Assembly: GCA_963924565.1 (NCBI GenBank)
Contig: OZ004608.1
Location: forward strand, 15,314,001-15,378,000
DNA length: 64,000 bases
Origin: Ascidiella aspersa
Taxonomy: Eukaryota
Reading direction: 5' to 3'
Of the stretch, positions 9,165 to 54,700 are shown piece by piece (the stretch's first letter is position 1; each line of letters opens with the position of its first letter). The position numbers were made by a program, and so were the translations under genes. The notes under the pieces are model-generated. The model searched no databases and was not told where the DNA came from. It worked only from the letters and a program-made list of their open reading frames with translations.

Positions 9165-12100
9165 ATGGGAGGAGCTAATCAAATTCCAGACAATTTGCCA
9201 CAACTTCAAAATTTAATTAAGCGAGATAAAGCTTCCTACAAAGCAGAGGTACTTTCTATTAACTGTATAGTCTTATTCAGTGGTTCTCAACCTTTTATAG
9301 AGCCAGAGCCGCATTTCAAACCTAAGGTTTGCAAGGAGCCGCATAAAAAACAACAGTAGGCATATAATTAAAATCATTAAGAAAGAAACAAGAAAACAAC
9401 AAAAATACATTACGCTAGCCTAGGCTAACTAATTATCACTGTTGAAACAGCTATTTCTTATTGCCATAGCTTGTCGATCAAGACTAAATATATTATGACG
9501 TCACAAACCACAAAATTATTTTAAAGACCCGAACGGAAGTACCAGGGAACATAAGTACTTCCCGGGAACAATTAGTACTTCGTACTCAGGATCCTTGCTG
9601 ATCAAATTCATTCACTTTTATTTTCTTTTACTTCCTTTGTTGCAATTCTGCTACTGCTAACTAATTTTTCACTCCGTTAGTGAGAGCCGCAAAATGTACA
9701 GTTGAGAGCCGCATGCGGCTCTGAGAGCCGCGGTTGAGAATCACTGGTCTTATTAAATTGTTTATTGCTTCATGAAGATATTTAAAGTAACTACTAAAAA
9801 GTGTAAAAATTGTTATCAATTAGGAAAGAAAAGTGTTTATTGATTAATTGACATTTTGTATATTGTTCAACGCCTGTCATTATCTGAATAATGTGGTAAT
9901 TTTATATGTTGCTGTTCATAAATGCTTCTTTAAATTTCTCAGTTTGAGCAACAATATCGTCGCTATGAGTCAAACCTTCAGGTTTTTCTTTTGCAACCCA
10001 AGGAAGATGCAAGCACGTTATGTGAACTTGTCATGTTCATTGCACAGGTGTTGTTGGCAATACACTTTATTAATCCTATTTTTTTATTGCAAAAAATATT
10101 ACCAATTTAGCTGTGTTTACTTCTAAAAATACTTCACACATTCGTTAATTCTGTAATGCAATTGAATATGTTCTGTAATGCAATTGAAATAGCTATATAA
10201 TCTTTTAGTTTTGTTGAGACATTCAGGCACTGTTGCCTAGGTCAATCCTTTGTTTTATGTTTTGTATTTTTAGGTAACGCATTGTTATCCAGATGTGGTT
10301 AAGGAGTTTCCTCAGCAGTTAAAAGATGTACTTCAGAAACATATGCTTTCACTAAATTCTGAAACTCGAATGGTACAGTAAACAAATCTGTTTCAATGCT
10401 TGAAAGTTTACTTTGTTTTGAAGATGCTTTTTCTGTATCCATGTAACATTATTCAAAAACTGAATGTCAACAAAGCAATTGCAATTTTATATTACAGACT
10501 TTATGTCGAGCTTTGATGATCTTACGGAATAAGAATCTTATTACCCCAGCTTCTTTGTTTGAATTGTTCTTTGAACTTTTCAGATGTCAAGACAAACTAC
10601 TAAGAAAGGTGATAATATTATTTTCCTTAAAAGGTAAAAAAAGTCTGCCACTCTTAAAGTTTAGAATTTTTTTTAGCACTTAAATTTAATTTGTTACTTT
10701 TTATTTAAAACTATTTCGTTGAATATTTATATTAATTGCTATTATAACTGTTTTAATTTCAGACGCTGTTTAATTTTATTGTACAAGATGTAAAAAAGTT
10801 AAATACTGGACATAAAGATAACAAACTTAATAAGGTGGGTTGGTTTTAGACATTTTTCTCCTGAATATACAAAATGTGTTTCATACATAATATGCACTTC
10901 TTATGTTTCTGCATATCTAAATGTTCATAAAATGTTTTTTTTATTAAAGGGTCTTCAAAACTTCATGTACACAATGTTGTCTGACAACAATGCCACGGCT
11001 GCCAAGATGTCATTAAATGTCATGACCGAATTATACCACAGAAAAATATGGAATGATGCCAAAACTGTTAATGTGATTAGCACAGCCTGCTTTTCAAAGT
11101 TTACCAAGGTTGTAATAACTAGTTTATTTTTATTAACTGTATACAGCTACTTATACAATTTAAAGTTTATTATTATTCTAACAATTCACTGCGGCATTTA
11201 TAATTAATCTTTAATTTATTTAGGTACTAGGAACAGCTTTCAGATATTTCCTAGGACAAGATCAGCCTTCAGAAGAATCGGATTCAGACTCTGAAGAAGA
11301 CGGACCCAGCGCAAGGGATATTATTATAAGGTAATACCGACAACCAGAGAAATGTTTTTTTTTACGTCTAACAAATTGTTTCTATTGCACTGGCAGGAAA
11401 CTCTGATAGATTTGTATTACAAAAGTTCTTAGGATTTGTTTTCTCTTTGCTTATTTAGCCGTAGCTGTTTATATGTGGTAAAAAATTCTTAAGATACACG
11501 CAAAGGTACATATTTTTCCAAAAAAATGTTTGATTCATAGAGTCCGAATTTCAACATTAAAATATAAAATTGTTACACTTTATTTTTATTGATTTTAAGT
11601 AAGGAGTAGTAGTGTAATTCAAGGAAAACTTGTTAGCTAAATAGGAACTTTTTTCCACAAATATTTTTGCAATATACATTGACACTGGTTTGTGGGAAAT
11701 ATAGAAAGCACTTTTTTGTTTGTCTTTTGGTTGCAACTAATGCCAAAAACGTTTGTTTGTGGTATTATATGAACTTTGAAACAGTAATGCCAAAAGGGGG
11801 TTGATACAAAATGACTACTTATGTTGGTAGTGATGTTTTTGAAAGTTGGCTTAATTTTACTGTTGTGTTGGTCTAGCATGGACATATTTTCTATGTAACA
11901 TGGTTAAGTTCACAAAATATATTTATTTAAATTTCTTAATATGGCAGTATTGTTTAACTATTTAAATATTTTAAATCATATTTCTGAACATTTATACAGA
12001 TTTGCTGTTGCGAAGAAAACCACTCGGGCCAAACAAAAAAGGGACAAAGCCTTAAAAGCCTTGCACAAACATAAAAAGAAAACAAAGAAAAGCAACACAG

Positions 12101-23179: not shown

Positions 23180-24757
23180 ATGGCTACAAGCTGCGGCTTT
23201 GAGTTTCAAGCCAAAAACTTCGGCTTTTTCGATGTTTCACCGGACAAGTTCTATCACTTGCAAGTGAGTAGACGGTTTATAGATATTTTGCCACACTTTA
23301 ACGATGTCAAATCACGATTACATTGATTTTATTAATTTGCTGTTCGATGTAGGCTACTAATATTATTGTCTAAATTATTTAAAGAAGTTTACAAGGCTGC
23401 TGCTGTATTTCTTTTGTATCAAACACTTCTATTCGTCATGAATGTTTTCGCATAAGTAATGGACCTCAAGTATTTAACACGGCTTTAGATGTCGCAATGT
23501 AAAATTCACTTTGGAAACAGGGACTAATTTGTCTTTACATGCAGTGGACAAAAAAACGATGGGTGTACATGATCTACCGCCTGCTGGTTCTCATCTATAT
23601 GCTTGTTTGGCTTATCCTCGACTTTGCGTTGGACCTTGGGCAGAATACCCCCGGAGAGAAGCCACAGTACCGGCTACTGAGCAACTGGGGCGAATATCTT
23701 TTAGTTCTTTACTTTTTTGTCGCGTTCGTGATCTCGATTGTTGGCCTTTGTCGACGACACAACGACGAACATAGCAATGCAGGTTAGAAAATGTACTATG
23801 TTTCGCATAACAATAAGTTGAGACTTTGCAAATAATGTGTAGCAACAAATCACAAACTTCAAATGAAAAAAATGCTATAATCATTATTCACCAATATAGT
23901 TTAATTATAAACACTATTAAACAACATCTATATGGAATTTAAGCATTAAAAAAATAGAAAAGATTTTTGGGAATTTGTGCTTCGGCGTCATTAGCCTATT
24001 ATCAGTATCTCACGGGACCTTTCAGCTATTCGTGAAAGAAGCGGGTTCTGTATTTCTAGAATCATAAAAATAGTGACAATAAATACTCCAGTTGTAATAT
24101 GCGAGTTGCCCGAAAATTAAAGGAAGAGGTGAATTACCCATGCAAAGTAATCCGCGTCGTCACTAACATATCGTTTGATGTTTAGAAACGCTGCCGTGGT
24201 ATCTTAAAATGAACTGGGCGCTTTTCACCATGGCAACCACATCCGCCTTCGTAATCAGCATCTTTTACTGGGTTTTGATCGGACGAACCAGAAGCGCCGC
24301 CCTGAACCTGAGACCACGCACCATTCACCTGCACATCACCAATTCCTTGCTGGCCTTGATAGATATATTCATGGTCGCCTTTCCAATCCGTTTCCTACAC
24401 TTTATCTACGTCGTGTTGTTTGCCTTTGTCTACACCGTGTTCATTCTGATTATGCACTGGACCGGCGTAGACTCTGCTATCTACCCGGTCTTGGATTGGG
24501 TGAACAATCCAGGAGTGGCCGCTGGTTATAACGTTGCAGCCGCCATTGTATTACCAATCGTAATCCAGGCCGTGTCGTTTGGTTTGTATCACTTACGCGC
24601 CTGCATCGCACGAGCCACGGTGCTCAAGAACGAGAAGGAAGACCAAAAAATTAGATCCGATGCGAGCTTGGAAATGGGCAACGTTAACACCGCCTTCGAG
24701 GATTCGACTCCGAATCACAAGCCGACCGAAATTTACCCCGACCTCGCGGCGCAATAA
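23180..24757 (+). CDS. Rolling stone-like multi-pass membrane protein (FAR-17a/AIG1-like superfamily), 3 exons
   Basis: Exons 23180-23263, 23545-23782, 24186-24757 are in frame. About six hydrophobic segments and motifs LSNWG, PWYLKMNWAL, ISIFYW, HITNS, PIRFLHFIY and IYPVLDW fit rolling stone-like proteins. Confidence 0.8.
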
Positions 24758-25758
24758 AAAGGACGTTTGTTGCAATTATTGCCACTTTAGACACTCCCCT
24801 TAATATAAGGGCACAACGAAGTCAGAGAGTTTTTAAAGCGTTTACTTCACAACAACTAGCGTAATTTTTCCTAAACGCGTTCGTTAGTCAGCCATTTAAC
24901 CCGGCTGTATAGAATCTTTGTTTTCAAAAAAAAAAAAAAAAAAATTGCAATCTGTTTTGTATATTTAAATACTAACGAATTTTGCATTAGTCAATATTAA
25001 AATCTGCTGAAAATAACTTACTTTTATCTGCTTTGCAGTTCTCTAAATTAGAAACTCCAAATGAACCTTGAGATTCAAGTTAAAAAAAACTCCTAAATTT
25101 AAATAAAGAAGATTGTATGCGGAAATGTTATGAGTATATTTTTACTTTTTTCCTACAGCAAGAAAATAAGTTATCGAAGTCACCAAAACTATTATCCATT
25201 TATTTTTTTATATTAAATATTGTCCTCAACACTGAATCATTTTAGTCGTAAAATGTTTGCTTCGTACTTTTTATTAACACATTCGTTATATATTTTATTA
25301 AACCTGTGTATGTACGTATTTTTGTACTGATAAAAAACTGCAACCTCAGATGATCACAATTAACTTGCAAACACATTCATTGTTAATTGTTTATTGCACT
25401 TTAATCATTTTCATCGCTAAAACGGTGTGCATTTGATTTGCTTGTTGTCGATTCTTTTCGCTACTTTTACCCCTGTGACGAAGCAGGTAGGCTTCTTGCG
25501 TGTGTTTAAGCTTATCGTAAATAACTATAGTTCTACTTTATTGTTGGCTTGCTATCTAGCATTTTAGATAAGTCGTTTTTTATAGCACTTGTCGTCTTTA
25601 GGAATGTTCGATAAAATCGGTTCGGAACCGAAACCCTATACTAAGTGCCAGTGTAGTAGTTGTTACTCGTCAGATACTGCAGGATCGTATTGATGCTAAT
25701 TTGCTTCAAATATTTGTGCTGAAAGGCGAGCCGCGAATAAACAGTATAAATTAATATG

Positions 25759-25930
25759 CTGTTGCTACCAGGCATTGGATTTACTGATAAGAAGTTCTTC
25801 CGGTACTTATTTGTATTTTTAGCTTACTTTTCCGTGGTGGTATTACATTCCCTGATGAAGGCATCTTGGAATAGCCGAAACGTCGGATAAAACATATAAG
25901 TACCGGAAAAACTTCTTAACAGTATGAATA
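25759..25930 (+). mobile_element. Non-coding mini Penelope-like element / retrozyme-like unit (leader + inverted 3' end + hammerhead)
   Basis: 17-nt leader ctgttgctaccaggcat (25759-25775) is identical to the leader at 39946-39962. A 29-bp inverted repeat (27/29) lies at 25782-25810 / 25896-25924 with a hammerhead between the arms. Ends in tatgaata like the 40-kb copy. Near-perfect direct repeat gaataaac(a/g)gtat at 25735-25747 and 25926-25938. Confidence 0.8.
25849..25887 (+). ncRNA. Minimal type I hammerhead ribozyme (GUC cleavage triplet)
   Basis: TCC-CTGATGA-A-GGC(atcttggaata)GCC-GAAA-CG-TC-GGA: complete catalytic core, stem I TCC/GGA, stem II GGC/GCC, stem III reduced to the palindrome ACGT. 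Confidence 0.85.
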
Positions 25931-27789
25931 AACGGTATGTCATTTAGTATAACCAAATCTGTCATATAAGCGTTTCAAACGCTAAATCAAACTTCAATCA
26001 GTTGTTTCAAAAATTCGCATCGGCCAATGTGTTTGCCGTTTTTAGCGACAATACGTTTTTTATGGTAAATTATTTTTTGTTATTTCCTAATGTAAAAATG
26101 ATATATTACAATTTTATTTTTATGGGGAGCCGACATTTTTGGGAGCTCCGATGCCGTAGTAGTAAGCAGTGCTTTATATGCAACCACCTTGTCAACATTT
26201 TTTGTGTAGGGCTAGAAATTAGCTAAGGGATAAAACAAGTGGCTATTAGTGTGGCGCGAAGGACCGGTCACAGTAGGCCACAGGGGAGCAGTATAGAGTC
26301 GTATACAAATAAATAGACACACATTCAGGATGGTTTACGGACTTTCAAGGAGATTTTCTTGTAGAATTACTCCTGAACAATCATAGTAGTTTTTTGTTAC
26401 GTTCCTTTTGTGTTTTTGTCATTTTATTTTGTCAACTAAAATCGCGGATTTAGTATATACAAACCATTAAAATATTTTTGTTTACATACGTTTGGCATTG
26501 AAAAGAAACATTTTCTAACACAACGTTGATCTGTAAGCTATTTCTATCGGCTGATATATGCCTGTACCGTAATGCGATGGGCTGTAAAGTTATTAACACA
26601 ATTTGAAATTCACATAGCCCTTATTTTTTTCAAATAAATCAAATACTCTCTCTAACTCACGGTTATCGTTCCCGCGTGGTAGCAGTAGAGTTTCATGTTA
26701 GAAAAAAGGGATGATTACTTGAAGGGCAAAGTTCGTCTTTTAAAAACCGTGTCTTATAGCACCCAGGAAACAAAGATTAATGGTGATGCCAATTTACATG
26801 ACAAACTGAAATGTCCTTATAACACAAAATTGTACTAACACAAGAATACCTAACAACGTATTGTATTCGTAACAAAAGTAAAAAAAAACAATCCATTAGC
26901 CTACTTAGAAAGCTATACAAATTTACACGAAGCACTACATGACCACAATAAAATATAATTTTACATGGGATATATTTATGCAGCTGTTTTTTTACGTCCG
27001 TCGTGCGCGTCACAGCTGCTGAAATTAGTTAATTTTCGAATAAATTCAATCAAATTATTTTTTTGCCAAATACCAGGCACGGGAGCAAGCGCAGTTATTT
27101 TCCTTCGGCACTCTTTGAAGGAAATGCGTTATTTGGCGCCAAGGTTCAGGATCTATAAAATTTGGTTACGAATTTTTGTACGATTTCGGTATCATACAGG
27201 CTTTCGGTTTTTGGCTAAGGAGATATACAGTTAGGAACAAATAAGATCGATATAGTTTATACCTTAGCAATCATGGTTTACGCGACACAGCTTTTAACTG
27301 TACCGGTAACAGTTTATAAAATTTCAAACTAATATTGCACCTCTATTTATATTGATTGTCCAGTATTTTTGATTAAAGAACAAAATGTTTATGCTCTTTT
27401 TATAGTTTCCCAGTTCTTCAAAATTTGAACTATATTCGCCTCAACAGTTTCATATTTTCCTGTGAGCATCACCGATCAAATTTCTTAAGTCCCCCTAGGT
27501 GTATAGAAGGAAGTAATATAATTTGGGAACACACACTGACCTACCTACAAAGCAAATCTAAGCAGAATAATATATAATACCATAGCATTAGGACCAACGA
27601 CATATCAAAGCCAAATATAAGGTAATAACCACGACAGAATAAAATCTAAAATCGTTGAAATAAGACATAAACCTGCCGGAAAAAAACTATATTCATCCGA
27701 ATAAGGCCCAAATAGATAAAATAACGCAAAACTGTAGATATGAGAGGATTTTGGGGCACCTGTCTGGTATTGGCAGTTTTGGTGTCGAC

Positions 27790-37500: not shown

Positions 37501-40500
37501 GTTTTTATAAAAAAAAATAGCTTTCAGTCTACGAGTTGAGGTAATATCCGCCTAAATGATTTTTTACTTGTAGGTCCTGAAACAAATAGTGCGCTCCTGT
37601 CCTGATATTACTCGTCTCTATACGGTGGGCAAGTCGGTGCAAAAGAGATCGCTGCTCGTACTTGAGTTTTCCGACCTTCCTGGTAAACACGAAGCACTGG
37701 AACCCGAGTTCAAGTGGATTGGCGCTATCCACGGCAACGAGGTGCTGCTGTTAAACTCAATGTTTAAGTAAATATGAACAAGAATTGTGTATTGTGAGTT
37801 TTTTGTAACAAAAAAGTTACGGAATACGCATATCAAAAAAAATATTTTTTCCACGTTGTTAGAAATATGATTCATCACCCATTAATGTACAACATTCTGA
37901 TAAGCTGGCTAAAATTAACACCTACTTTTATTTTTATGTTACTTTGCGGTAATTATATAGGTTCTGGGTAAGGAATTGCTTTTAAAGTTGGCACATTTCT
38001 TCTGCCAAGAATGGCAAAACAACAATACCGACGTGAGAGCCATGATCACGAGCTCACGAATTCACATCATGCCGTGCATGAACCCGGATGGTTATCATTT
38101 GGCAAACAAACAGGTACAGAGAACTTCGCCAATAGTAATCAAAAGCTTTTAAGGCCAAAGTTTAACTTTTATTTTATTTAAGGCACCGAACGCGAGAGAC
38201 TGGTTAACTGGGAGGTTCTCAGCTCGTGGCCACGACCTTAATCGTCAATTTCCCGACCTTACTTCCAAAGTTTACCGATACGAGAAAAAAGGAGGACCGA
38301 ACAATCACCTGAAGATACCGACATCCTATTGGCGCACTCACACCCAGGTAACAATCAACTAGTAAGTTTTATTATTTCGGAAAATCGACCCGTGAATACT
38401 GGAATGACTGGTAAAATATTGTTGGGCATGCAAGCTATGTAAATGACTACAAATAGATTAATCTCTATTCTTTAGTGACTTATTTATTTAGGGTTTTAAC
38501 TCCACAAATAATTGTCTATAAACGCGTAAGCAATGCTCTAAAACAGTGCTTCCCACTTTTTTCAGTTCGCGATCCACTTTTAATGCAAGTTTTATTTTGC
38601 GAGTCACAATGAGATATAACCAAACACACAAATATACACAAATTTACATAAAAAATGCATCTTTACTACTGACGTACGTACTGAAATAGTTAATATGGCA
38701 CAACATACTTAATTGTTACGTATTTGTGATGTGGTTGCATAAATTGTACGTCATGATAATTCAATAATTTCCCAATCGATTAGAAAACGTTAACATTTAG
38801 ACCCACTGGTTTGGGAGCACTGCTCTAAAATATAACTGTTAAACATCTGTGCCACTAAGATCAAAAGTAGTATAAGAGTCTTCTTCACCATCCGGCAATC
38901 TTAGAAATGATCAGACGGGAAATTAGGCAATTGGTGGCCAACGTTTGTTTAATGGCTTTTAAAAGTGGTGACCTTCAGTTGTAGTCATTTTGCTTCGCAG
39001 AGCAAAGACCCGGAGGTGTTCGCGGTTATGGACTGGATAGACCGCTATCCCTTTGTGCTTTCGTCGCAACTGCACGGCGGCGATTTGGTGGCCAACTACC
39101 CGTACGACGTGAGGCGCTCAGGGAAGAGGCGATATGGCAGAGGTCGCAACAAGCACTACTCGAGGTGTCCCGACGACCGAGTCTTTCGGCAGCTTTCCGC
39201 ACTCTATGCGACGGTTGGTGGCGTCGTTGAGATTTTACGGCAGCAAACCTTTTGCAGGAATTCTACTTGCTGCAGACTTAATGTCGTTGTTTGTACTACC
39301 GACATTTCCAGCAATGCAAATGGTGACATTTGGACTGCAACTAACATGATTCCTTTATATGTAAACTTTGCATCCATTCATAGTAACATCATATCAGTTA
39401 TACACAAAATTTTATTTTAAATAACATTTTAATCTAGTCTTAGACTTTAATAAAGAAATAAACCATTAAAATAAAACAAACAATATAATTTTCGCCCCCT
39501 TGTGGAATGTCATTTTGCTTCTAGGCCTAAACGGGCTCATTTTGTGTAATAGAACCACGGGAAAATGTCCAGTCCAACACTCAACAGGTGTTCTTACTTT
39601 GGGCGACAAGGTGGAATTACAAACGGAGCTGCCTGGTATAGTCTCTTAGGAGGTAAGAAAGAAATATTCTGCATAGGTTATCAGGGCAATGTTGGTGTCT
39701 AGTGTCGTTTAATATAGCCTGTCAATTGTTTTTAATCAAATTCCTTATATTGACGTGTTGTTGTGGTTTATTTACTTATTACAAAAGCAAATTGGTTGTA
39801 GGATTATAGACGGCACAATCTTAAATGCAGAAAATTAGGGCAGGGTCAATTTTTTTAACTGTTGTATGCTCGGTTAACTGAAATCCATTGAAAAAATCTT
39901 TAAAGATCATTATTAAACAAATTACTAACATTATGAATATTTAAACTGTTGCTACCAGGCATGGTAATATAAATCAAAAACAGCTCCTGAACGTCAAAAC
40001 TGACGCGATGTTTTCTGCATGCTACAAGCATCTGCTGAAGGACTAGAGGGAGTCGCTAATTATTTTCTTATCGTTTCGTTGCTCGAGTTTATTTCTGTTT
40101 TTTCCTTTTTTTGCTTTCCATTTATTGTACGAGCGTTCAGTGTCATTCACCCTGACGAAGGCGGCTTGTATAGGTTGCCGAAACGTTGGTTAACAATTAC
40201 AATTACCAGAGGAGCTGTTTTTGATTTATATTATGAATATTGTTGCGAAATTGTATCAGTATTGATATAGTCGAGTTACCATATTTATTAAGGGATGCAG
40301 GATTTCAACTATCTTCATAGCAACTGCTTTGAAACGACGATGGAACTCGGCTGCGTAAAGTTTCCTCCTGCAAGTCATCTTCACGGCGAGTGGATCAGCA
40401 ACAAGCAATCATTGATCCTGTATACAAAAGCGGTTGGTAATAGCGTCTCGCAAACTCGTTACCTATTACGTTGTCACACACTAGACAACATACCTTCTGT

Positions 40501-45700: not shown

Positions 45701-48700
45701 AAACATATCGTTTACTAAATGCCCCTAATATCTTATTGCCTGCTATAATAAAAAAATATCGATGACTAAATAATATTATTGTGATTTCGGTGCAGACCCA
45801 ACGTAAAACTATTTTACATTTAGACCTATAGTGGTAGTTTCTTTCCGTGGTCGCGTAACCTAAAACACTGGCATAGGCAATTACACATATCCACTATAAA
45901 GCCCTATTCACGGCTTGTTGGTGGGTTTTTTTGCGACTAAGTCACAGTTTGCACGTCCAATCCGCACAGACCATCTAATAACTAAGTACCATGCAGCGTA
46001 AAAATAGCAAATAAACGTAAGGCGAAACTGACCTAGAAAGACGACGAAAATGAAGACAACAAAGTAGATGACGGCTCCGATCGGTTCGCCGCAGTCGCCG
46101 TGGTAGTCGCCGACGGCGGCGGTGCAGTTTCGGGTGTTCATTAAGGGCTCGAGCACGTCGTTCCATCCGGCCGAGGTAACGAGCCGGAAAAGCACCATGA
46201 GCGAGTTGCCGAAAGTCTGGAAGTTCACCAGGTCGTTGAGCGCGCCTTCGAGCTTGACGTGCATGAACATCGTCATGCCTGGCGGAAAATGTCAGGTTAA
46301 TGGGATTAATATTAGCATTGTACGCTGCGCCGTTCACCAAAGGGTTTTATCGTGTAAATGGAATACGGTTTTCTGCTTTGGCGATGAAACGGGACACAGA
46401 AAAAAAGGCGATTTCGCACGAAAAGCCAATCAACCTTTTATAAAATTAAAGTGCTGAACAGTTCAAGTCTTAAAGTTTGTGGTAAGATCAGCCCTCGTGT
46501 GGTCAAGTTTTTTCTTTCAATCGAAAAAAATCACGTTTTACTATCAAGTTATTATCTGGCCTGGTAATGGGTGTCACATTTATTGCTCAATTTGTCTATA
46601 ATTCCTACCTCTAAAAAATAAGTATTTTTGGAAAACTAAGTTTTAATTTTACTCTCGCTAGGCAGGTGTAGTGACATACTGCAATGTTATAGGTAAAATA
46701 TATAACATTTATAACCTTTTTGTCATCCACAACAATTGTTTAAAGACCCCTGAATGTAATTTATTGCATATAGTTTCTAAAAGCAATCCACATTGTTTGT
46801 GAGGTAGAATGTTGAACATTTCACGTCATTTCGTAATAACATTTTGTGGTGTAAATTCATGTTAAGTCTATCACAAGCATTACCAGTATTTTGGCCAAAT
46901 TCACAGTTTAGCAGATTCCTTCAGCATAAAAATTAAACCAACGAATAACGAACACAAGGTTAACTGCAAAACTCGTTTAGGTTACTTACCAAGAATGGCG
47001 AAAATAACCATGAAAACGCTTAGAAGAACCGCGATGTTAAAAAGTGCCGGGATGGAGATCATTAGGGTGAGCACTAAACGGCGGATCCCCCGGGCGGCGC
47101 GGACCACGCGCAAAACGCGGAAAACACGGAAAACACGGACGACACGAAGTAGTGTGGGCGACACGATGAAGGCAATCAGACGCTCCAAGATGAAACCTGC
47201 CATACATTTCGTTAGGATCTGTGCATATAGTTCGTTGTTTTACCTATATTGTCTGAATTTGCCCACATTGACACAGTCCGCCACTTTGGGTATTAGGCCT
47301 ATAACCTATGAGGGCACAACACGTTTAGAGCAGTGATTCCCAAACTTTTTTGATTCGCGGCATACTAAAATATCTTAAATATTTCGCGGCACACTTTTAA
47401 CAGAACATTAATAGAGTCATTTTACAATCGCCAATAACACACGACAAACTAAATGTAAATGTCTCAATATGATTAATTTGTAATGGGTGGTGCGTATTTA
47501 AGTCTAAAATGTTTTCGTTGGTAATACAAATACTATACGTTCCGAAATTACAAAAAAGTTTCGCGGCACACTTGACAATCTCTAGAGACACACAGTTTGG
47601 GAATCAATGTTTTAGAGCGTCACTGTTGCGTATATCAGGCCACAGCCCCTCACCAGTAATTGACACGACGACCACCAACATGTCGAAGACGTTGAACACG
47701 TCGCGGAAGTAGTAGTAGCGCATCCCGATCAGCTTTAAGATCGCCTCGATGCCGAACATAGTGGTGAAGGTGATGTCGCTCACACGCAGCGCCAACACCC
47801 AGGTGTCCGACATCTTGTAGTGCTCCATGCTTAGCGTGGCCATGTTAAGCACGATGAGGATAAAGACGGCAAGCTCGAAGCGGCTGTTGGTCACCAGCTT
47901 GAAGAACTTTAGCTGGAACCAGTTCTGAAACGAGACCGACATTGTGTTTCGCATATTTTCGAAAAGTGTAGACAAAAATGTTATCGGTTTTATCAAAACA
48001 TTTAATGGCTGCAGTTCAGGCGCACAAAATATCTATCTACATCAAGTTATCTGGTATACCAAAAACCGACTCTATTTTTGAATTTAAAAGGAGGAAACGT
48101 TCGAGAATGTTTATTTACAGCAAATTGTGTTGTGCAGCAAAAATGGTATAGCACACACTTGAGTAATAAAATGTAAATAATATAGAAGGAACAACATGGG
48201 TAAGCCGAAGGTGGTTGAGGAAAGTTATACTTGTTTTTTTTTGCAAAAAAAACTTGTTTCCTGTTGAGTGAGAAAATCAGTTGTAACTTTCAAAAAGTTT
48301 GGAATTATTATTTGCCCCATGTACTGCCCTTTTTAAGCGTAACTTGTGGCTTATTTTTTGCCTGCTATAAAAAAATTCGACAAACCCTCATAATGTAGTG
48401 GAGACAAGTTTATAAAAAAAAGTTATTATTCATTTACCTCAGGTGGTGGAATCGTTTTTTTCGGCTTTCTGTTCAACATTGTTCTCATTGTTTTATAGAA
48501 CTGCTTCTGAGAGTCCGTCAGAAGGGTTTCCACAGCTGAATTAGAATCCGTCTAGTAACAAAACAACCATTTGAGGACTATTTAAGTTAAAATGGTTCGT
48601 AATTTAAAAAAAAAAGTTTTAATGTTTACATTCCTAAATGCTCCTAGTTTCTCAAACGAGAGGGCAGTATGACGAAAATACAACAATATGGCAAAAGTAT

Positions 48701-51700: not shown

Positions 51701-54700
51701 AATTGGGTTGCGTAAATTCTTCAGTTTAAAGAAATGAAGACGTCGCCAAGGTTAAGTATGAGAATTGTTTGCTTTAGTTTTTTATAAAATTATAATTGCT
51801 GTCAAATAATAGTCTTAACTAGGTGGTTTTAATAGTTCTTTAAACGCAAGTGAATTACATGGTTAAGTATTCGTCTGTATACTTAACAACTATGATTACC
51901 AAGCTAAAGAAAACACTAGAAAAATATTTATTTTACCGCCACGATGCCACAGTCGAGGATGCACCAAAACGTCGTAAAATATTTAAAGATGCCGATTCCA
52001 GCCCATTTGAGAAGCATTTCCATAGTGAAGAGAATCGTGAAAACGTATTCCAACTTCTGCAGGATGTCCTTGCGCAAAGGATCCTGATCGAGATGGATGT
52101 CCTCCAACGTCTGAACAGAAATCAAATTCGTTTAACGGTGAACATTGTGATAGATTGTAAAATAGTCATTGAAGTAACGCAGAAGTGCGATTATAGCTAC
52201 TCTCATCAAAGGGTTAAACTGCCGTGGTTCGACTAAAAACTTTTTGTTTGCTTGTTGCGTACAGTTTCCTATTCTACGAACAAGTTGATCCCATTAGAAT
52301 TGCACTCGTTTCAAATGATACATTATATAACCAAATCTAGGATAAAAATACGTAAGTGTTCTATTATTGCGGCTGTCATGACGTATATGATTTCCAAGCA
52401 TTATCAAATTAACCTTAAATCTAAAGTCGGTGCTAGTGGAGAAATCAGGATTTTGTTGTTTACGTTGTGCTTTGAACAAACTTTACTAAATTTGAGCTAT
52501 AGTTGTTTTCTTTGAAACAGGGTGTTGCGCAACGACAGAAAAAGTACTATTTGATTCGCCAGAAGGGTGGGAAAAACTATAGTCTACAATAATTCGAAAA
52601 TCTGGCAATATTATCGGATTGTATGGGACGATCATGGAGGCCACCGTTACAGATCGGCGCCAAAATATATGAGTCTTTCTAATGAGTGACTTGCCAAACA
52701 AACAGTGCTGGCCAGAATAAGCAGGAGGATGAACCACTCGAAGAACTGATGTTCGACCAGACGAAAGCAGGCCTTTCGAAACGCGTGCCAGTTCTTTTCG
52801 TGGGCGGACGATGGAGGTTCTTTCAGGCTTGGGTACCTTAAGATAAAATTTTGTATCGTTTACTGCAAGTTAGTTGCTCTTTAGGTCACAATATAAACAA
52901 ATTTAACTCTTGTTCTAAAAGACTTTCACAACAATTTGATTATTTTTGGAATCGTGGAACATCCATAAGAAGGGTAACACCATGAACGTCAAAACTGACG
53001 TGATGCTTTCTGCAAGCTACAAGCACCTGCTGAAGGACTAGAGGCAGTCGCTAATTATTTTCTTATCGTTTCGTTGCTTGCGTTTATTTCTGCTTTTTTC
53101 CTTTTTTGCTTTCCATTTATTGTACGAGCGTTCAGTGTCATTCACCCTGACGAAGGCGGCTTATATAAGTTGCCGAAACGTTGGTTAACAATTACAATTA
53201 CCAGAGGAGCTGTTTTTGATTTATTTTACAATAACGTTTCACATTTACGTATAGCCTGAAGTAAACATAATAGAAATATATGGTATACCCATTTTCACAA
53301 AAAGTTTCGCTAATTAAATGCAGGACATTAGTGGAAACTTAAATGTTTATTTCCTTTTTGCTGTTTGAAAAATAATACCTACACGTTTCTGTCTAATTCA
53401 CAGCCTTTGTGCATTTTCTGGCGGGCGATCTGTTAAGACTCCCCCGAGATGTAGTCTTTCCCCAGTGCGCCTAAATGACACCAACGGTAGTAGATAAAAT
53501 TACTTTAAAGTAAAGGGTCATTTCTATTCCCCGTGTGGCATTTTTTAACGACGACGATGAAACACAGCGATTCTTCAAGTCTCTGTAGCGATGGAAAATG
53601 CTTGAGGTATCAGGCGATGTGTACAATTTGTCTTTTTTTGCGACATACCTGTTCAACACAAACATCGGCAAGCACGACGGCGGCTCGGTCGGCGATTTTT
53701 CCTCCTCCACAACTTCTTCGCCTTCCGCGTCCTGGCGACCCGACGAGGAAGCGGAAGAGGAAGATGAGGAGGTGGCGGCGTCCTCCGCATTATTCTCGAC
53801 GTCGCTGGAGGCCGGCTCCACCTCGCGCGCCTTGTTGCAGCTGCACAAGCAAAGCATTCGGCAGCAGCTCGAAACGGGGCTTTGTGGCGCCCGATGATCT
53901 CCACCATTGTTGTTGTCGATTTTTGCGGCCTTTGCGTCCTTCTTGTGCGTTTTGCCGACGTTGTGGTTTTCGTTTGCCGACGCCGGACAATCTTCGCTGC
54001 ATTCAGCGATCGCTTCGAAGGTGCCGCGAGCTTTGGGCTTTGGGCTCTGGGTGCTCGCTGCGTCTCCCCTGCAGCGCAATCGACACACGTTACGGCTGGC
54101 AATTGTTTTGTTTAGCTCAGTCTGTTGAAAACATTTTTTACAATAATCTGCTTTGGCTACATCTTTCGACTGTTTTACTGATTCACTGGATGAAAAGCGA
54201 AATACAGCGCAACTATAATTACGAAAGCAATTTTTTGGGGGATGGACTGGTTGGGTTTAATTACTCTTTTGTTTGGCGGTCGAGTTATCGAAATAATAAT
54301 TTTTTTGCGGACTTTTTGAAGTTGCCTCACAAATATTAAGGGGATTCAGACCATCCTTAAATAACCACTGGGTAAAAAGATGATGCGAGTAATCAAGTTT
54401 CGACTTATGCAAAATTATAATTTTGAAGAGTTAATTCATTTTCATGATCCATAAAATTTTTCCAACAAAAAATAATAAAGAGGATAATCATATTTGGGTT
54501 TTTTGGCGGCTTACAGATCTTTAGACAAAGCGATGCACGTTTTACGAATATATATATAGGTTATTATTTGAACGGTGGCACAATCTAGAGCTTCATAAAA
54601 ATACAAACACCTGTCGAAGCTGTTTTGCCGCGGCATTCCCGCCTTGCGAGTCTTGGCGTGGCCGGTTACGTTGCCCTCATTGTCACCGGCCTGTTCCAGG

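Follow-up and report, generated by a model that had tools for sequence, protein, structure and literature searches.

The window analysed here, a stretch of 64,000 nucleotides of Ascidiella aspersa DNA, holds two hammerhead-bearing copies, near 25.8 kb and 40 kb, that have a 17-mer in common. Our reading, to which we give a probability of roughly two in three, is that both are 5'-truncated, head-to-head insertions of endonuclease-positive (EN+) Penelope-like elements (PLEs), that the 17-mer is the ORF start on the opposite strand, and that reverse transcription from two start sites on a single source RNA, primed on both ends of the cut target, likely produced each insertion. The reading is built on observed features, namely the parts of the copies, a 12-bp target duplication, two end positions, a one-tail rule and variants common to both arms. 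How PLEs make head-to-head insertions with a one-ended tail is a question posed in PMC8557442 and PMC11167929; the counts given below indicate that the two ends of one insertion choose their start sites non-independently and stem from one source.

The 17-mer occurs at exactly two sites in the window, 25759-25775 and 39946-39962, and no third site was found with up to three mismatches (0.10 sites expected at that stringency). The 40-kb copy is bounded by a 12-bp target-site duplication of host DNA that contains tatgaata (39930-39941 on the left, 40230-40241 on the right, identified by the direct repeat and the empty allele). Its inverted arm with tail (39942-39988, minus strand) runs antisense from about ATG+20 back to ATG-26 in an unbroken match to the near-full-length copy L112, and the 17-mer within it (39946-39962, minus strand) corresponds to ORF nt 1-17, i.e., the start codon, P, G, S, N and two bases of S. 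The sense arm (39988-40229, plus strand) is 5'-truncated and tail-less and stops at ATG-7, or could reach ATG-3 (40233), as four bases match element and target alike. It carries the last codons and stop of a GIY-YIG endonuclease (39987-40046, plus strand; tblastn to the L029 and L104 proteins, the Pfam GIY-YIG match on L029 being weak and below cutoff) and a minimal type I hammerhead motif in the pLTR (40150-40189, plus strand) for which cleavage is predicted to follow 40187 (GUU). Two claims of the initial annotation, a direct repeat of 12 bp and a perfect inversion of 24 bp (39965-39988/40210-40233), were confirmed, and its description of PLE insertions with an inverted pLTR and a tail was borne out.

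The 25.8-kb copy belongs to an older, different PLE family. It consists of an inverted arm with tail (25748-25817, minus strand; 17-mer at 25759-25775) and a tail-less sense arm (25818-25925, plus strand) with a minimal hammerhead motif at 25850-25886 (GUC), the arms being 89% identical over 36 nt; an inferred 13-bp target duplication flanks it at 25735-25747 and 25926-25938, with one mismatch between the two sides. An alignment score of 0.57 per base over the 3' part of the pLTR agrees with the earlier assignment of the two copies to different families. A third copy (52938-53232, plus strand) belongs to the family of the 40-kb element and has a single arm without tail or inversion; it retains the endonuclease C-terminus (52940-53038, plus strand) and a hammerhead core from 53147. 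The three minimal hammerhead cores, which start at 25852, 40152 and 53147, were located with a purpose-written motif script, and an Rfam scan of the window returned no hammerhead and nothing at E<=1. Stem II of the hammerhead covaries across families. The layout is real and its architecture already published; the families are new. Exon-like host frames were noted at 38953-39420 (plus strand, Peptidase_M14, with the 40-kb copy about 0.5 kb beyond it), 24179-24757 (plus strand, Rost), 47604-48032 (minus strand, Ion_trans) and 10803-11207 (plus strand, SDA1_HEAT).

An empty allele defines the 40-kb insertion. In it, base 39929 is joined to 40230 with 300 bases skipped, and the 12 letters fit either side; it was seen in four raw reads of run X18 and in one contig each of runs X1 and X2. 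Reads or contigs of these three other runs, all labelled as the same species, lack the insertion (39930-40241), which makes it polymorphic and probably recent. The empty allele keeps one 12-bp target copy including tatgaata and lacks the 17-mer; the true target duplication is therefore 12 bp of host DNA, and the 17-mer is element-borne, as had been proposed. The initial annotation had also let tatgaata end the element, with its downstream sequence shifted to the 5' side by permutation on a circular or fold-back template. The layout of both window copies, with tatgaata toward the right end and the 17-mer toward the left, speaks for this, but in the 40-kb copy tatgaata lies within the target duplication, and of 70 other 17-mer loci (among the matches listed, 70 of 829) none has it at its ends, which together with the empty allele rules it out as the end of the element. 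In the 25.8-kb copy it spans the junction of the element end with the inferred duplication of 13 bp. In long copies the pLTR passes into the reverse complement of the 17-mer, and tatgaata does not intervene. Empty allele and long copies together refute permutation, which we consider extremely improbable; tatgaata belongs to the target, and a circular template is unnecessary. Across family A, duplications of at least 11 bp were found at 37 loci with a mode of 13, some of the longer ones being doubtful. As to a target motif, AT richness alone emerged (79% AT in duplications vs 65% in flanks, 23 sites).

Exact matches to the 17-mer number 829 in the genome (308 Mb), whereas its reversed control has none. 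The set examined comprised 72 loci: the two window copies and 70 of the 829 (the first 70 among the matches listed, all on one contig, six of them copies of one composite). A loose hammerhead piece was present on the arm opposite the 17-mer strand at 39 of the 72 loci, compared with 4/72 for the control flank, and on either arm at 51. On the hammerhead strand, conservation over the 72 profiled loci ends 8-10 nt beyond the 17-mer, which places the 17-mer near the 3' end of the inverted arm and leaves no leader. Copy L112 reads pLTR, hammerhead, 84 nt and then the reverse complement of the 17-mer, which opens MPGSNSLYIEFKGLYGP, an ORF that continues for 293 residues until a break; ORFs of other families start with MPGSNSIF, MPGNNSLF and MLPGGANSIF. 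The reverse complement is nt 1-17 (MPGSNS) of the ORF of EN+ PLEs. The 17-mer is the outer end of the inverted arm and no separate part, and it falls between two start sites of reverse transcription, inside the PLE 'tail' of the literature. It had been taken for a permuted 5' leader; it sits antisense, at the tail end of the inverted arm. A possible likeness to the RFX X-box was dropped once the ORF start accounted for the 17-mer.

The assignment to EN+ PLEs follows several canonical features. A protein search yielded 151 scored matches, which fall into families of approximately 96, 73, 61, 57 and 42% identity, and ORFs of the longer copies had atlas matches of 0.98 to RT/GIY-YIG clusters. An RT with a C-terminal GIY-YIG domain in a single ORF was found: L104 carries RVT_1 followed by GIY-YIG (both below curated cutoffs), L101 carries RVT_1 above cutoff, and L029 runs on into a frame with the weak GIY-YIG match. 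No uninterrupted ORF of family A was found. The L029 translation contains the CCHH motif, with GIY and YIG enclosing two cysteines, that defines canonical EN+ PLEs (PMC8557442, in the part available). The pLTR lies on both sides of the ORF as a partial tandem, judged from separate copies, the same hammerhead repeat being upstream of the ORF in L112 and downstream of it in L029 and L110. A minimal hammerhead lies in the pLTR (a predicted ribozyme with no Rfam match), and insertions show an inverted pLTR, a target duplication and an optional tail, about 28 nt here, where the canonical description gives 30-40 bp. By eye, and for family A, the RT-EN linker in L029 has no cysteine for a CX2-5CxxC finger; such a linker, lacking the Neptune/Nematis finger, would point to the Penelope/Poseidon clade. 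For the 25.8-kb family, a full ORF was not found among its 11 relatives, two of which (L247 and L248) keep C-terminal endonuclease remnants upstream, linking the family to a PLE ORF as a derivative. The copies are dispersed, single or inverted and continuous with ORF remnants, and do not form the tandem non-coding hammerhead units of non-LTR retrozymes. One distant family, about 42% identical to family A, has an open frame of 815 codons at L101:1864-4308 (G000:C3:7035364-7037808), with start MLPGGANS, a pLTR and hammerhead upstream, and without the 17-mer.

Family A was sampled with a 25-nt pattern adjacent to the hammerhead and hence without selecting on the tail (234 matches; the 85 loci represent 95 of the first 100 among the matches listed), and ten copies of one composite were collapsed before ends were counted. 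Element ends were bimodal: 44 of 111 fell at ATG-7 to +2 and 45 at +19 to +31, with four between, giving two end positions at about ATG-5 and ATG+24, some 28 nt apart. After nine composite duplicates and five loci with an arm lacking the pLTR end were left out, 36 of 50 inverted loci remained as independent insertions. Exactly one tail was scored automatically in 32 of these 36 vs 18 expected (p ~1e-6), the other four having two tails (two loci) or none (two loci). Inspection by eye brought the count to 34/35: L190 has a tail-less outer end plus a fold-back in its interior, L216 is L215 duplicated with a rearrangement, the L199 tail carries an internal deletion, and L182, with no tail, is a true exception. 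Listed as exceptions are L182, and L056 and L249 with two tails. In the 17-mer set, a second tail on the inverted partner was found in 1/40. Single-arm copies used both end sites, 14 of 35 having the tail (some are duplicates). The composite is one inverted family-A insertion present at 10 of the 85 loci (L163, L164, L165, L168, L170, L184, L194, L195, L218 and L227; e.g., G000:C1:16979976 and G000:C3:7682231), with identical junctions, at least 600 bp of common flank and partly a 3.77-kb spacing; the junctions and flank indicate that it is carried by another repeat.

An arrangement with exactly one tail and both arms from one template would also result if a cDNA or antisense template primed itself to form a hairpin and the endonuclease trimmed one tail at resolution. 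Self-priming and a tail arising from EN-mediated resolution have been proposed (PMC3846280 and PMC8557442, respectively, in the parts available), and copying back into the flank is visible in L190 and probably in L249. Under such a scheme, however, an extra one-sided deletion is needed each time the tail-less arm is equal or longer toward 5', and this is the case in 16 of 31 insertions (250 nt vs 26 in the 40-kb copy). The tail arm reaches further 5' in the other 15 of 31; either arm may be longer, a pattern that simple cDNA fold-back cannot produce. The use of both end sites by single-arm insertions also speaks against it, as does the fact that both sites are RT starts in vitro (PMC11167929, available part). 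We regard fold-back with resolution as improbable. Priming order could not be read from arm lengths (no difference, Wilcoxon p 0.65). Two further observations concern arm shape. L190 (1991-2994) and L249 (1464-1772) contain two-tail palindromes with the flank duplicated in inverted orientation, as if synthesis had folded back through the junction into host DNA. In 13 of 33 family-A inverted insertions the shorter arm ends within a 16-nt zone from ATG-62 to ATG-47, around the 3' edge of the hammerhead and the predicted cut, most ends lying a few bases beyond the cut.

The two arms of one insertion have derived variants in common: 38 over 2202 overlapping sites in 30 insertions, i.e., a rate of 0.017 per site vs 0.0027 in shuffled pairs (maximum 0.0099 in 2000 shuffles). 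These variants fit one RNA, two RNAs of one locus, or DNA-level copying alike. In the second case, two RNAs of one locus, held together by hammerhead or protein dimer, would supply one arm each, with the asymmetry of the complex setting the start site. According to PMC4209133, minimal PLE hammerheads probably work as dimers; strand displacement is not needed, and the common variants fit if both RNAs come from one source locus. Among the family-A loci, however, no inverted pair had arms of two families, and L077, the single mixed locus inspected by eye, consists of one insertion nested in another; nor does the model itself explain why each end uses one site. We hold it to be quite improbable. 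The one-tail rule and the private variants common to both arms together favour coupled twin priming from one source RNA, as we infer.

In coupled twin priming, the GIY-YIG domain would make cuts in AT-rich DNA that are staggered by about 12-13 bp. Of the two 3'-OH ends, one would prime at the proximal and one at the distal site, and the distally primed arm alone would therefore have the tail with the 17-mer. Both cDNAs would run toward the 5' end of the element, terminate early and be joined. A protein dimer would give each end its own start site, and one RNA copied twice would need strand displacement. In RNA run X19, 322 reads fell on the element and nearly none on its flanks, so other copies are their source; within the element body one strand predominates among them, in a library that is possibly unstranded. 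X19 has no position where many RNA molecules begin or end, which says little on hammerhead cleavage.

In LINE-1 twin priming, each end of the cut target primes synthesis, which leaves an inverted 5' part inside a single duplication; the same would apply here. The LINE-1 arms, however, cover different parts of the RNA, whereas the arms described here start at most 28 nt apart and overlap, so that one RNA stretch is copied twice.

The initial annotation had put the 17-mer forward as a cis-signal for the RT-endonuclease. The region may carry such a signal, but the common 17 nt are largely explained by a common coding start, other families carrying variants. These variants fall mostly at third codon positions, as protein constraint and common descent alone would have it. 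Against this, identical residues have identical codons in 49/73 cases in codons 1-20 vs 163/383 later (Fisher p 1.7e-4, from six pairs among four families that are not independent). A 6-bp stem pairs codons 2-3 with the pLTR about 30 nt upstream, leaving the proximal start site and the ATG in the loop; in 12 related sequences its positions are 97% paired, two of the pairs having changed on both sides, and 3/500 shuffles score as high, a support that depends on few independent changes. Sequences folded singly do not take up the stem as their optimal fold (z from -0.09 to 0.59), which is in line with coding constraint alone, as is the failure of a second candidate helix (a pseudoknot from the loop to the 17-mer end), which was no better than shuffles (336/500 as high). 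The extra synonymous conservation and the weakly covarying stem suggest an RNA signal that overlaps the ORF start and likely extends beyond the 17 nt; coding and descent without such a signal seem to us unlikely as the full account. The families would have the 17-mer in common through the common coding start, which likely doubles as part of an RNA signal. A more specific version of coupled twin priming, in which it is obligately asymmetric, is put forward tentatively and is somewhat doubtful as a whole: a dimer would copy one RNA twice, from inside the conserved stem-loop just before the start codon and from just after it, and the translation start would double as the priming signal in all families of the genome.

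The following comparisons draw on the available parts of the cited papers. PAc, a Poseidon element of Anolis carolinensis (PMC11167929), resembles the present elements in its two start sites bounding the tail, AT-rich targets, upstream hammerhead, stem-loop at the start site and RT followed by GIY-YIG. In vitro, both target strands were cut and extended, and a dimer was predicted; the part available reports no start-site difference between top and bottom strand, and pairing within one event was not tested in vitro there. PAc starts more than 110 nt into the ORF, with a tail about 110-145 nt into it, and its ORF begins inside the hammerhead, whereas here the starts flank the ATG, which lies 84 nt past the hammerhead core. 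PAc junctions are described as non-homologous; here, microhomology averaged 2.05 nt at 40 junctions vs 1.22 under a rough null. Insertions with an inverted pLTR, a target duplication and an optional 31-bp tail covering ORF residues are described in PMC3846280 for the EN+ PLE Pen2a of Adineta, PMC8557442 gives the scheme and notes that the tail is often on one end only, and PMC4209133 describes minimal hammerheads, often as opposite-strand pairs. Here, unlike in Pen2a, the tail holds the start codon itself, common letter for letter to several families, and duplications are mostly 11-15 bp, compared with 8-10 bp in the Adineta examples. Non-LTR retrozymes (bioRxiv 10.64898/2026.07.22.740005) likewise have type I hammerheads related to PLE pLTRs, but as tandem non-coding units and not as dispersed 5'-truncated copies of coding elements. 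Among the papers listed by literature searches, none counts start-site pairing within insertions. The elements and their layout are otherwise ordinary; what is added is the quantified one-tail rule and a tail overlapping the start codon, and the counts turn a qualitative remark into a prediction testable in the existing in vitro system.

One nested locus was also noted: at L077:1370-1510 (G000:C9:8653061+), a family-D inverted stub lies inside the endonuclease end of a family-A copy, and its target duplication also contains tatgaata.
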